64,000 nt of DNA from positions 64,001-128,000 of the forward strand of contig JANNXA010000022.1 of assembly GCA_031409275.1 (NCBI GenBank), given 5' to 3'. Position 1 is the first letter of the stretch; each line of letters begins with the position of its first letter. The notes beneath the pieces are model-generated. The model had not been told where the DNA came from and searched no databases. It saw nothing but the letters and a program-made list of their open reading frames with translations. The DNA is from Planctomycetota bacterium (GTDB lineage Bacteria; Planctomycetota; B15-G4; SIAN01). Below, piece after piece: positions 27,079 through 35,278 of the stretch. The position numbers and the translations under genes are program-made.

Positions 27079-27315
27079 CCGATGCCCTCCCTGTCGTGCC
27101 TGCGACGCCCGCGGGGCGCTGCAACGAGTCGCCAACGCAAACGACGGGGGCGCTCGGCTGGCGCCGGGAGTGCCGGTGCTTCGCCCGGCGGATCGCCGGC
27201 GATTCAGGCACACCTTCCCGATCGTCGGGGAAGCGAACGCGCCGGCTTCTTCAGGGCGGCCGCGTCTGCTACAAGCGTTGCCCCAAAGCCGCGCTTCGCG
27301 TGCGGCGGGTCACGT

Positions 27316-27401
27316 GCCGGGGTGGCGGAACGGCAGACGCGGTGGACTCAAAATCCACTGTCCGCAAGGACGTGAGGGTTCAAGTCCCTCCCTCGGCACC
27401 A
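27316..27401 (+). tRNA. tRNA-Leu(CAA)
   Basis: GCCGGGGTGGCGGAACGGCAGACGCG-GTGGA-CTCAAAA-TCCAC...GGTTCAAGTCCC...CGGCACCA. Confidence 0.97.
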
Positions 27402-27555: not shown

Positions 27556-27630
27556 GGGCGGTTAACTCAGCGGTAGAGTACTATCCTCACACGGTAGGAG
27601 TCACAGGTTCAAATCCTGTACCGCCCACCA
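27556..27630 (+). tRNA. tRNA-Val(CAC)
   Basis: GGGCGGTTAACTCAGCGGTAGAGTA-CTATC-CTCACAC-GGTAG...GGTTCAAATCC...CCGCCCACCA. Confidence 0.96.
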
Positions 27631-27850
27631 ACGGCTGCGCCGGTCGCGCGCACCATTGCGGCTACTTCGGCGCCGCCACCGTTGGCGAAAGATCTTCCGT
27701 CGTTCCGCTGGCGGCTGCGCGGAGGCCCGTCGAACAGTCGACGTCAGAGGTCGACGTGTCGAGCGTGCGCTCCGATCCGTAGCCTTCTGCCGAACGCTCG
27801 GCTGAGTCGACGAGGAAGCTGAGTTCACCGGGAAGTAGGAGCTGTCGCCG

Positions 27851-31615: not shown

Positions 31616-33007
31616 TCAGCTGCCGCCGGCGGGGGCGGCGCGAAAGAGCTCGCCCTGTTCGGAGGCGCGATCCACGATCGAGCGTGCGGCGCGGACGAGC
31701 TGATCGAGCTCGAGCGGCTTGCGAAGGACTGCCGCGCGTGAGCGACGCAGGAAGGCGGCGGTCTCCTCGCCGAGCGCGTCGCCCGTCACGAAGATGAAGC
31801 GTCGCAAGAGCGCCGGGCGCGTGCGCGCGAGCTGCTCGTAGAGCTGCATGCCGTCGAGCCCGGGACGGTGGATGTCGCTCACGACGACGTCGACCGGCTC
31901 GCCGGCGAGGTAGGAGAGCGCGTCTTCGCCGTGCTCGAAGGTGATGACGTGGTTGCCGTGACCAGAAAACGTGCGCGTGATCACCTCGCGCAACGCCGGC
32001 TCGTCCTCCACCACGACGACGCGGCGATTCTCGATCATCTCGGGCGGCGGCGGCGGCGCCGGCGGACGCTCGGGAAGGGTCACGCCGGCCGTGACCGGAA
32101 GTGACACCCGCATCGAGGCGCCCGGTGGCCGGCGCCGTGCCGCCCGGATCTCGCCGCCGTGGTCGTGCAGGATCTCGCGGCACAGCGTCAACCCGAGTCC
32201 CGTCCCCGAGCCGTCGCTGCGCGAGGTGAAGAACGGGTCGAAGATGCGTTCGCGGATCTGCTCCGGAATGCCCGGGCCATCGTCGCTGACGTCGATGACG
32301 ATCCGCCGGCGAGTGGAGCGGGCCTTCACGACGACGTTGCCGTGGTCCTTCATCGAGCTGATGCCCTGCTGGGCATTGGTGAGCAGGTTGATGAAGACCT
32401 GCGAGAGGAGCGCATCGTCGGCCTCGAACGGCGGCAGGCTCGGCGCGATGTCGAGCTCGAGCTTGATCGAGCGCAATGCGAAGTCGCGCCGCTTGAGTTC
32501 GACGCAGCGCAACAACAGCTCATCCATGCGAACCACGACCCGTTCGCCGCGACCGCTGCGACTGAAACGCAGCAGATTCTGCGCGACGCGCGCGGTTCGG
32601 AGCGCCTCCTCGTGGATGCGCTGCAGGTCACGTCGCGCATCGTCGGCGAGCGGCTGCGCCAGCAGGAACTGCGCGTAGCCGACGATTCCCGACAGCGCGT
32701 TGTTGATCTCGTGGACGACGACGGCGACGAGGCGCCCCGCGGAGGCGAGACGAGACAGGTGGTAGACCTGCTGCTGCAACCGCTCGACGAGACTCTGGTC
32801 GGAGTAGAGGAGCAGAACCCCGTCGGCGAGCGGGATGGACGTCGTCGGGCGGAGGAGTCGTCCGTGCGTGCCGTGCTCGATCGACTTGCCGACGATCTCG
32901 GAGGCGGAGCGATCGAGGAGCTTCAGCGCGAGTCGGTTGGCTTCGACAACGAGGCCATCTGCGCCAAGGCGCAGGGCCGGCAACGGAATGGAGTCGACCC
33001 AGGACAT
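31616..33007 (-). CDS. Cytoplasmic hybrid sensor histidine kinase (PAS-like, HisKA, HATPase, REC)
   Basis: HEINNAL, QVFINLLTNA, DDGPG, FDPFFTS, GTGLGL; receiver VVEDE...VSDIHRPG...FVTG...KP; no transmembrane segment. Confidence 0.93.
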   Translation of the reverse strand: MSWVDSIPLPALRLGADGLVVEANRLALKLLDRSASEIVGKSIEHGTHGRLLRPTTSIPLADGVLLLYSDQSLVERLQQQVYHLSRLASAGRLVAVVVHEINNALSGIVGYAQFLLAQPLADDARRDLQRIHEEALRTARVAQNLLRFSRSGRGERVVVRMDELLLRCVELKRRDFALRSIKLELDIAPSLPPFEADDALLSQVFINLLTNAQQGISSMKDHGNVVVKARSTRRRIVIDVSDDGPGIPEQIRERIFDPFFTSRSDGSGTGLGLTLCREILHDHGGEIRAARRRPPGASMRVSLPVTAGVTLPERPPAPPPPPEMIENRRVVVVEDEPALREVITRTFSGHGNHVITFEHGEDALSYLAGEPVDVVVSDIHRPGLDGMQLYEQLARTRPALLRRFIFVTGDALGEETAAFLRRSRAAVLRKPLELDQLVRAARSIVDRASEQGELFRAAPAGGS

Positions 33008-33063
33008 TGCCGAGCTTCCCCTCGCAATCCCGCCCGGTCAGACGACCGCGATTCAGGCGGCAG

Positions 33064-33093
33064 ATTGTAGGGGCGGCGATGGAGCGACCGCAA
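33064..33093 (-). promoter_or_regulatory. Putative sigma70 promoter of the hybrid kinase
   Basis: Minus-strand TTGCGG-N18-TACAAT. Confidence 0.45.
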
Positions 33094-33259
33094 TCGAGGG
33101 AATGACCGAAAACGGTCGGAAAAGAGCTCCTGAAGCAGTGCGACGACCGGACGAACGGCATCGCGAACAGGCGCCGGCGCCGGTTGCCTCCCGAAATCGA
33201 CTTCAAGTCATGAGCGCGCCGCGTCGATGGATCCCCTTCGGTAGGGGAGCGCACTGGAA

Positions 33260-34054
33260 ATGGCGACCGACTCGTTCAGCGACGTCCGCAGCGAGCTGCA
33301 ATCACGCTCGACACGGACCACCATCGACGAACTCAAGAAGAAGGGCCTCGACCAGGTCCGCGTGATCCGTTCGAGCCAGATCCTCGAGCTGATCGAGAAG
33401 GCGGTCGATCGCGCACTCGCGCGCCGCGGCGTTCCCGAGAATCCGGCCGAGCGCCAGGAACTCCTCACGGATTCGACGGCCATCTTCCGCGACATGCTGC
33501 GCACCGAGATGCAGCAGCAGCAAGGCACAGCTCAGCGCAACTTCGAGGAACTGAAAGCACGGCTCGAGCAGGACGCCGTCGAGATGCAGGCGCTCGAGCA
33601 GCGGTTGTCGCAGCGCGACACTCAGCTCTCCGAGGCGCTCGCGCGGCAGGCCGAACTCGACGCGGAGCTGCGCGTGCTTCGCCAGCGCTCGCAGGCCGGT
33701 TCGCCGCAGGATCTGCTCGAGGAGCTCCGATCGCTGCGCAAGGAGATCGCCCGTCCGCCGGCGCCGGTCGCGATCGCCGCGCCGCCGGTGGCGCCGGCCG
33801 CGAACGGGGCGCTCGAGAAGAGCATCCAGTCGCTCGGGGCCGAGCTCGCCTCGCAGATCGAGCGCATCGGCCGCAAGGTCGGCGTCTCGAGCGCGGCGGA
33901 AGAGTCTCAGGCGGAGCTGTCCGGACTGTTCCAGTCGATCCCAGAGCTCGAGGGCAACCTCGACGCCGTCGAAGCCAAGGAGCGCAAGGCCAGCGACGTC
34001 TCCGATGCGCTGGCTCGCATGAAGTCCCTACGCGGAAGCAAGGGCGGCACTTGA
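33260..34054 (+). CDS. Coiled-coil protein, putative partner of the downstream actin-like ATPase
   Basis: E/Q/L/R-rich heptad region, Pro/Ala linker, C-terminal amphipathic helix DVSDALARMKSLRG; GGGGAG RBS. Confidence 0.8.
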   Translation: MATDSFSDVRSELQSRSTRTTIDELKKKGLDQVRVIRSSQILELIEKAVDRALARRGVPENPAERQELLTDSTAIFRDMLRTEMQQQQGTAQRNFEELKARLEQDAVEMQALEQRLSQRDTQLSEALARQAELDAELRVLRQRSQAGSPQDLLEELRSLRKEIARPPAPVAIAAPPVAPAANGALEKSIQSLGAELASQIERIGRKVGVSSAAEESQAELSGLFQSIPELEGNLDAVEAKERKASDVSDALARMKSLRGSKGGT

Positions 34055-34126
34055 GGTCGAGCCCTTTGCATGCCGATCGGAGTGGGTCCTTAGTCCCTTC
34101 AAACACTGACGAGGCAGGAACGCGAC

Positions 34127-35206
34127 ATGGGTAGCGCAGATCAAGGCAACCACGAGAACGGCACGCGTCCGGCGGTCGGCACCACCGGCGTCGCAGAGCG
34201 CCCGTCGAGCGTCGCCAAGATGGCGGGCAAAGGCCTCGACATCGGCACGGCGAACATCCTCGCCGCGGTGCGCGACCAGAAGGGCGGCATCGTCGTCCGC
34301 TGCGAGCGCAACGCCTTCCTCGACATCCAAGGTGACGTGCACAGCCGCTCGATGCTGACTCGGCTGAACGTCCCCTACGTGGTGCACGAGAATTCGCTGA
34401 TCGTGCTCGGCGGTTCCGCCTTCGAGCTCGCCAACGTCTTCGGCCGGCCGACGCGCCGACCGATGAAGGACGGCCTCATCTCCTCGCTGGAGAAGGAGGC
34501 GCTCCCGATGATGCAGATGATCATCAAGAAGGTGCTCGGTGACCCGGCGCAGCCGAACGAGCCGTGCTTCTTCTCCGTGCCGGCCGAGTCGGTCGACAAG
34601 GAGAACAACATCGTCTACCACCAGGGCCTCTTCGCCGGGATGCTCCAGAAGCTGGGCTACAACGCCACGCCGATGAACGAGGGCCACGCGGTGACGTTCG
34701 CCGAGCTCGCAGCCGAGGATTTCACCGGCATCGGCATCAGCTTCGGCGGCGGCATGGTCAACGTCTGCGTCGCCTACAAGACGATCCCGGCGCTCACCTT
34801 CTCGGTGGCGCGCGGCGGCGACTGGATCGACGACAACGCCTCGAAGGTGCTGGGCCTGCCGTCCTCGAAGGTGACGTACATCAAGGAGAGCGGCATGGAC
34901 ATCCGCTCGCCGAAGGGACGCGAGCAGGAAGCGATCGCGATCTACTACCGCAACCTCATCTCCTACACGCTCCAGAACATCCGCAACCGCCTCAACATGG
35001 GGCGTGACCTGCCGAGCTTCACCGATCCGGTCGAGATCGTCTGCGCCGGTGGCACGTCGATGATCCACGGCTTCATCGAGGTGTTCCGCGAAGAGGTGCA
35101 GAAGATCAAGTTCCCGATCGCCATCAAGGGCGTGCGGCTGGGCAAGGAGCCGCTCAACTCCGTCTCGCAGGGCTGCCTCGTCGCCGCCGTCTCGTCGATG
35201 GAATGA
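34127..35206 (+). CDS. Actin-like ATPase (volactin-like; not MreB or FtsA)
   Basis: Actin-fold motifs GLDIGT, FSVPA, NEGHAV, GISFGGGMVNV, ARGGDWID, CAGGTS and NSVSQG; an alternative ATG lies at 34220. Confidence 0.85.
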   Translation: MGSADQGNHENGTRPAVGTTGVAERPSSVAKMAGKGLDIGTANILAAVRDQKGGIVVRCERNAFLDIQGDVHSRSMLTRLNVPYVVHENSLIVLGGSAFELANVFGRPTRRPMKDGLISSLEKEALPMMQMIIKKVLGDPAQPNEPCFFSVPAESVDKENNIVYHQGLFAGMLQKLGYNATPMNEGHAVTFAELAAEDFTGIGISFGGGMVNVCVAYKTIPALTFSVARGGDWIDDNASKVLGLPSSKVTYIKESGMDIRSPKGREQEAIAIYYRNLISYTLQNIRNRLNMGRDLPSFTDPVEIVCAGGTSMIHGFIEVFREEVQKIKFPIAIKGVRLGKEPLNSVSQGCLVAAVSSME

Positions 35207-35278
35207 GCGAACCGCGGATCGGAGGCGACGCTGCGCGTCACATGACGAGCGGCGTCGCCTCCGCCCGCGTTCCAGCCA

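Follow-up and report, generated by a model that had tools for sequence, protein, structure and literature searches.

A volactin-family actin and a conserved modular partner gene in an uncultured planctomycete

The locus described here raises two questions: to which actin family does its actin-like gene belong, and what does the gene that precedes it do? The pair lies in a 64,000-nucleotide window (the whole stretch of DNA that was analysed) of a 300-kb contig, with metabolic and signalling genes around it. The initial annotation had proposed an undescribed cytoskeletal system of a probable planctomycete, consisting of a volactin-like actin and a dedicated coiled-coil partner. The features to which we refer are listed below.

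33260..34054, + strand: partner (adaptor) gene, 264-aa ORF, soluble, without a Pfam or NCBIfam family
33272..33499, + strand: partner head domain (about residues 5-80), common to the partners of MamK-like actins and sometimes fused to volactin
33500..33754, + strand: variable spacer, likely coiled-coil (about residues 81-165), with a Pro/Ala linker after it
33914..34033, + strand: conserved C-terminal tail, proposed actin-binding peptide, LF...E-x-N-L...V-x-x-x-L-x-(K/R)-(L/M)-K-x-L
34127..35206, + strand: gene of a volactin-family (PF25216) actin-like ATPase, 359-aa ORF
31616..33007, - strand: hybrid histidine kinase/response regulator, a divergent local neighbour outside the module
35220..35263, no strand assigned: GC-rich hairpin, 14 nt past the actin stop codon, between convergent genes

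The actin-fold motifs first noticed in the 34127-35206 ORF are all present (GLDIGT at 34232, NEGH at 34676, GISFGGG at 34733, RGGDWID at 34811 and AGGTS at 35045), and the nucleotide-binding motifs are intact, with Ser for Asp in phosphate 2, a residue that is invariant in an alignment of 25 planctomycete, haloarchaeal and phage members. The Pfam model Volactin (PF25216) matched the protein at positions 3-321 of 321 with 284 bits (cut-off 35; E 2e-84), while MreB_Mbl reached only 27.5 bits and FtsA stayed under its Pfam cut-off. The NCBIfam matches to MreB, FtsA and EutJ were all far under their cut-offs (26 bits for TIGR00904, an MreB model with a cut-off of 365.75), and the family HMMs of MamK, BeeR and salactin gave no match at E values up to 1. 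The similarity to haloarchaeal volactin homologues was 41-42% identity (three homologues; five haloarchaeal replicon records). A PDB search with the single sequence of the protein gave no significant match; the profile of the actin family found the actin-like ATPases 5jyg and 5ljv, which we take to be MamK (E 4e-15), and MreB (E 2e-8).

In a tree of 49 taxa with only two outgroups, MreB and MamK, the volactin family was split from both with a UFBoot value of 94. Haloarchaeal members (UFBoot 99) and a Mad28/Acidobacteriota-type group (UFBoot 96) formed separate clades, the planctomycete clade was weak (UFBoot 62), and deep branching inside the family had no firm order. The HMM comparison and the phylogeny thus place the studied protein beside haloarchaeal volactins and away from MreB and MamK, and its assignment to the volactin family rather than to MreB, MamK, ParM or FtsA, as originally suggested, is supported at the level of sequence. 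The actin lies outside the haloarchaeal and Mad28-type clades; it is therefore a member of the family and the orthologue of neither studied form.

Is the volactin family itself new to bacteria? At locus L293, mamK, several coiled-coil genes and a HEAT-repeat gene precede a gene whose product matches PF25216 (E 1.5e-77) and shares 38% identity with the studied actin. This arrangement fits the MamK/Mad20-26/Mad28 module described in the accessible part of 10.1101/2025.02.24.639979, with what is presumably the same gene order. The L293 protein was called Mad28 from its position in a magnetosome-type cluster, the tree containing no named Mad28, and no named Mad28 occurred among the family cluster members or homologue names. 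According to the available sections of PMC10653835, Mad28 has Ser for Asp in phosphate 2 (xxxSxGxGxx) and xExx in connect 1, and both motifs are matched by the studied actin, which falls outside the clade holding L293. Judging by sequence features, volactin and Mad28 seem to be members of a single family. The description of the system as undescribed therefore holds for the planctomycete pair and its adaptor and probably fails for bacterial volactin-family actins in general, because Mad28 seems to be one of them.

The family comprises 803 clusters at E values up to 1e-10 and has members also in Acidobacteriota, Desulfobacterota, Omnitrophota and Verrucomicrobiota, as well as in two huge phages. 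A scan of viral contigs with a single protein confirmed none of nine candidates, and a later, partial scan with an alignment found many, 545 of 600 candidate stretches being confirmed as volactin family. Large phage-like contigs with such a gene (L016, LR745208.1; L017, LR756511.1; L061-L140) often carry it behind an ORF that ends in a tail-like motif, and in L016 the pair is found amid long genes of virion-structural appearance. Several other peculiarities were seen in the family. An intein interrupts the actin domain at its middle in nine of 30 long members scanned (P0192, P0217, P0232, P0237, P0247, P0252, P0267, P0295 and P0300); two of these sequences were read, and in both it sits close to the phosphate-2 motif. 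Volactin is fused to a weak ParB-like HTH in P0176, P0178, P0182 and P0183, to HU in P0412 and relatives, to a response regulator in P0304, to a zinc ribbon in P0287 and P0321 and to a PRC barrel in P0282. P0172 is a tandem double volactin, and L047 and L055 hold volactin paralogues in tandem, one of which is extended by a long stretch at its N-terminus. A recurring cluster (L237, also L224, L229, L232 and L236) combines a Clp-type ATPase, a response-regulator-like gene, a volactin-family gene, a MinD-like ATPase and often FeoB, along with two unassigned genes that are actin-like by eye, and at L246:7794-10575 a bactofilin-looking ORF (by eye) lies two genes on from a volactin-family gene.

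The next issue is how far the unit extends. The partner and actin ORFs are both on the + strand with a gap of 72 bp, and the actin gene is single-copy in the genome. No mre, fts, pil, mam or par gene was recognised in the flanking ORFs, in line with the initial annotation. The kinase upstream and the convergent gene downstream of the actin, which encodes a carboxypeptidase-regulatory-like-domain protein, were considered as module members and rejected: their orthologues adjoin the actin in only 2 of 80 GTDB loci (the best 80 of 578), and the unit is therefore two genes. The hairpin that follows (arms of 21 nt, 90% complementary, without a U-tract) is exceptionally stable (z = -5.7; none of 200 shuffles equally stable) and is likely a 3' end or terminator element. 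A promoter scan returned no sigma-70 site against 0.1 expected. In one RNA run (7% of words), two 151-nt contigs of ~97-98% identity fell on the actin gene and no contig of note on the partner gene, so that expression is neither supported nor contradicted. Elsewhere in the window, frame translations suggest tRNA genes at 27200-27350 and about 27600-27700.

The partner consists of a head of ~80 residues, a spacer and a tail of ~40 residues. Compared with 20 distant partners, mean identity is 27% in the head, 16% in the spacer and 36% in the tail, which makes the tail the best-conserved segment. Homologues range from about 230 to 800 aa, and their spacers differ about threefold in length. The size, spacing and solubility first described for this gene were borne out, the highest 19-residue hydropathy being 1.0 with no transmembrane segment. 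Its coiled-coil nature is indicated by generic matches only, both in the middle part (Pfam, NCBIfam) and in the search of the partner profile against the PDB, and the spacer is accordingly best termed a likely coiled coil. Pfam and NCBIfam detected no HTH, RHH or other DNA-binding domain in the head, whose net charge is 0 (residues 1-85), and Pfam gave no DUF7139 match in the partner. An ESM Atlas search with the head of homologue P0122 peaked at a score of 0.77, which is the level of chance.

Is this partner a constant companion of the actin? Profiles built from 28 heads and 39 tails, whose training species partly overlap the tested loci, found the head in 69, the tail in 67 and both in 67 of the 73 GTDB loci whose upstream DNA spans 1.2 kb or more; L145 and L186 had the head only, and L210, L215, L218 and L219 had neither part. 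The partner gene is thus the conserved neighbour that had been postulated. The 80 GTDB loci from which these counts derive rank highest among the 578 that a scan over 28 of 64 parts confirmed; 73 of them are titled Planctomycetota or a subgroup and seven only 'bacterium', and every record is a MAG or uncultured. By its named close homologues, the host is a Planctomycetota MAG, as had been supposed.

Across loci, the tail goes with volactin and not with the head. At the held-out planctomycete locus L026, where the partner has no head, the tail profile still matched with E 2.7e-8. This 128-aa partner (L026:1011-1397, G341) has a hydrophobic N-terminus replacing the head, an architecture that is intermediate between the archaeal form and the common planctomycete form. 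In phage loci, the head was found in 0 of 71 and the tail, at 10 bits or more, in 9 of 71. At 5 bits or more, the tail was detected in 18 of 54 phage upstream C-termini (last 60 residues); the control counts were 1 of 54 for windows from the middle of the proteins and 1 of 540 for shuffles. Profile-profile comparison gave a probability of 92.9% for the tail against 26 phage tails, which were picked from 62 by a motif chosen after viewing the list; for three haloarchaeal partners the probability was 48.8%, and for the tails of MamK partners 0.9%. The match to haloarchaeal tails was a weak one, the three sequences of a small held-out set giving E values of 6.5e-5, 0.006 and 0.1. The upstream partners of haloarchaeal volactins are DUF7139 membrane proteins, and in H. 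volcanii volA adjoins a CdpA-like gene with four transmembrane segments, as stated in the part of PMC12126565 available. Neither the tail nor the head profile matched the 79 loci of the Mad28/Acidobacteriota-type clade (best tail E 0.47); the tail is therefore not universal in the volactin family.

The head leads to a second actin of the same genome. When its profile was run over 47,261 six-frame ORFs of the genome, the partner itself was followed by the gene upstream of a MamK-like actin (E 0.0023), and the third-best ORF had E 0.47. This actin, on contig C55, scores 399.6 bits on NF040964 (cut-off 400). The MamK/saltatorellin-like actin locus (C55:166522-168458; L022:581-2517) has an upstream partner of 286 aa with the head in common and another tail, and a CpsD/CapB-like gene (by eye) lies divergently upstream of that partner. 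The head is present at 28 of 30 MamK-like loci of the order, the two misses being cut by contig ends, while the volactin tail occurs at none of the 30 and a different tail motif at all of them. Nine of 270 scanned proteins carry the head as an N-terminal fusion to volactin, one of the nine being seemingly frameshifted. These fusions keep the head and not the tail, which also fits a head that may act on actin itself.

Could the pair stand in for MreB or FtsZ, as the initial annotation implied for a phylum said to lack FtsZ and often MreB? The first half of that premise agrees with our data, no tubulin/FtsZ having been found in the 93% complete genome. The second half does not, for a true MreB is encoded on contig C55, with genes behind it that look PBP2-like and RodA-like by eye, and a PilM-like protein is present as well. 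Among 41 near relatives, MreB and a MamK-like actin were each found in 39; the volactin was detected in 12 and not found in 29, and all 12 carriers have MreB and ten of them a MamK-like actin. Its distribution by family is patchy (f1 6/7, f2 0/12, f4 2/15). Since every volactin carrier keeps MreB and the pair is patchy, it is an addition, not a replacement, and the implied role as a substitute is not supported. This agrees with the accessible part of 10.1101/817700, in which MreB and saltatorellin alone are reported for three Saltatorellota isolates. In the phylum as a whole, PF25216 exceeds the Pfam cut-off in 147 of 401 genomes. All 24 genomes of family f8 match PF25216; f8 was rejected as the same system, the six aligned loci being 19-26% identical to the studied actin, with altered motifs and a different upstream gene. 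The f8 loci L027, L039 and L056-L059 represent a divergent volactin-like subfamily in near-complete genomes and are possibly inactive.

What, then, would the pair do? In the reading that we prefer, which we consider just as apt to be right as wrong, a volactin-family filament is combined with a tail-binding adaptor whose head sits on an anchor shared with the MamK-like actin, and cargo is tethered or positioned. The actin would polymerise into ATP-dependent filaments, the C-terminal peptide of the partner would grip the actin, and the head would dock on an anchor or hub in common with the MamK-like actin system; given such docking, the pair would tether and position internal cargo by means of the filament. 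Polymerisation is strongly expected by analogy with volactin and Mad28. The available portions of the sources report that Mad28 polymerises in vitro with ATP-gamma-S (PMC10653835), that it assembles into filaments, attaches to liposomes and controls the position of magnetosome chains (PMC12713370), that Mad28 and the coiled-coil protein Mad25 interact in two-hybrid tests (10.1101/2025.02.24.639979) and that the filaments of volactin are dynamic and attach to the membrane through their tips (PMC10869688). Binding of the partner tail to actin is predicted with good confidence, and a tether role for the partner is what we infer, with moderate confidence; if there is a tether, membrane-associated cargo is slightly favoured over DNA. 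The pair is best read as an accessory, optional internal scaffold and not as a core machine of shape or division. A more ambitious version assumes a modular cytoskeleton of two actins in Planctomycetota, with one adaptor family that has a common head and interchangeable actin-specific tails, a volactin/Mad28-type and a MamK/saltatorellin-type filament attached to one hub, and a volactin-binding tail that is an ancient docking peptide reused by haloarchaeal membrane anchors and large phages; we offer it tentatively, as possible though doubtful.

The main rival to the tether is positioning of DNA in the manner of ParMR, in which the head would bind DNA or a nucleoid protein and the filament would move or space chromosomes. 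The resemblance of volactin dynamics to those of ParM, noted in the part of PMC10869688 at hand, speaks for it, as do 11 proteins, out of 120 listed for another clade, that are fused to an HU domain, weak ParB-HTH matches in four fused proteins (only one above the Pfam cut-off) and the abundance of the family in the large viral contigs counted above. However, no parC-like repeat array occurs in the 351 bp scanned upstream (32950-33300; a more distant site is possible), the head, with its net charge of 0, has no HTH or RHH match, the locus lies on a 300-kb contig amid metabolic and signalling genes, and the pair was not found in 29 of 41 relatives; we regard this explanation as unlikely. Actin-binding peptides, for instance the ParR tail and WH2, typically consist of a short extended segment and then an amphipathic helix, a form that the partner tail would match. 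The partner might only regulate the filament, nucleating, capping or sequestering actin through the tail helix, with a head that oligomerises and nothing tethered, and PMC10869688, in its available part, suggests that further factors are needed for volactin depolymerisation. Yet phages carry the same tail on unrelated N-terminal domains and haloarchaea carry it on a membrane domain, and the spacers differ about threefold in length; for these reasons a tether fits better, and pure regulation appears improbable.

A core cytoskeleton of shape or division, replacing MreB or FtsZ in Planctomycetota, is a very poor prospect. The lack of a detected tubulin/FtsZ, the occurrence of PF25216 in over a third of the sampled genomes of the phylum and the finding that volA is not fully deletable in H. 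volcanii (PMC10869688, available in part) are compatible with it, but MreB accompanies volactin in all 12 carriers, volactin was found in none of the 12 f2 genomes and not found in 13 of 15 f4 genomes, and the archaeal volactin is described in the same portion of that paper as independent of the division site. As regards a magnetosome-chain gene of a magnetotactic planctomycete, that is, an orthologue of Mad28, family and motifs are those of Mad28 and a MamK-like actin is also encoded; nevertheless, neither MamB nor MamP scored above cut-off in the 93% complete genome, no mam or mad neighbours exist and the actin lies outside the Mad28-type clade. At this completeness a magnetosome role is essentially refuted for this genome, and the chance that it applies is negligible.

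The tethering scaffold can be set against the systems already studied. With VolA of Haloferax volcanii (HVO_2015), whose hallmarks are tip-anchored dynamic membrane filaments and a role in shape change, the studied pair shares a full-length PF25216 domain, Ser in phosphate 2, a co-oriented upstream partner and a weakly similar C-terminal helix motif, HVO_2015 itself being compared only through the Pfam model and homologues. It differs in its bacterial host, which has MreB and a MamK-like actin, in an actin that is not nested in the haloarchaeal clade, and in a soluble partner with a head unrelated to the VolA neighbour HVO_2016 (CdpA-like, four TM helices). It resembles Mad28 in motifs, PF25216 membership and coexistence with a MamK-type actin and coiled-coil partners, but its locus has no magnetosome genes, its clade is separate and it has a single upstream adaptor of its own. 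Like saltatorellin of Saltatorellus and relatives, it is a non-MreB actin in non-magnetic Planctomycetota, and upstream of the likely saltatorellin orthologue in the genome there is a partner whose head is the same; unlike it, the volactin is patchy, whereas the saltatorellin-type actin is near-universal in the order (39/41), and the two belong to different actin families, with 17% identity, Asp in phosphate 2 of the saltatorellin type and another partner tail. The ParR adaptor has conserved ends and a variable middle. An actin and an adjacent adaptor of this build are likewise seen here and in MamK/MamJ, the anatomy of MamJ being given in the accessible part of PMC10653835. Unlike the case of ParR and MamJ, no centromere-like repeats were found in the 351 bp upstream and there are no magnetosomes, and no sequence similarity of either to the partner was detected.

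In the literature covered (mainly open-access, with preprint supplements outside the scope), no paper turned up that deals with planctomycete or phage volactins, with the adaptor, or with a common family of volactin and Mad28; planctomycete and phage volactins and the adaptor are not covered in PMC9522336, nor in the available parts of PMC12050087 and PMC11032199. Thus, the pair is real, conserved and undescribed: its actin is a variant within a family already known, and its modular adaptor is new. The weight of the finding is limited by an uncultured host, a system that is dispensable in most of the order and a function deduced indirectly. It links the archaeal volactin and the magnetosome protein Mad28, which have been studied apart, as apparent members of one family, which is widespread in large phages too, and it names a short tail peptide as a candidate link between filament and anchor. 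If the two-actin version is true, it would explain the tip anchoring of volactin and the origin of a magnetoskeleton of MamK and Mad28. Some Planctomycetota change shape or engulf cells by means that are undefined, and to our knowledge the phylum lacks FtsZ; an actin with its adaptor in about one third of the sampled genomes is therefore a concrete candidate.
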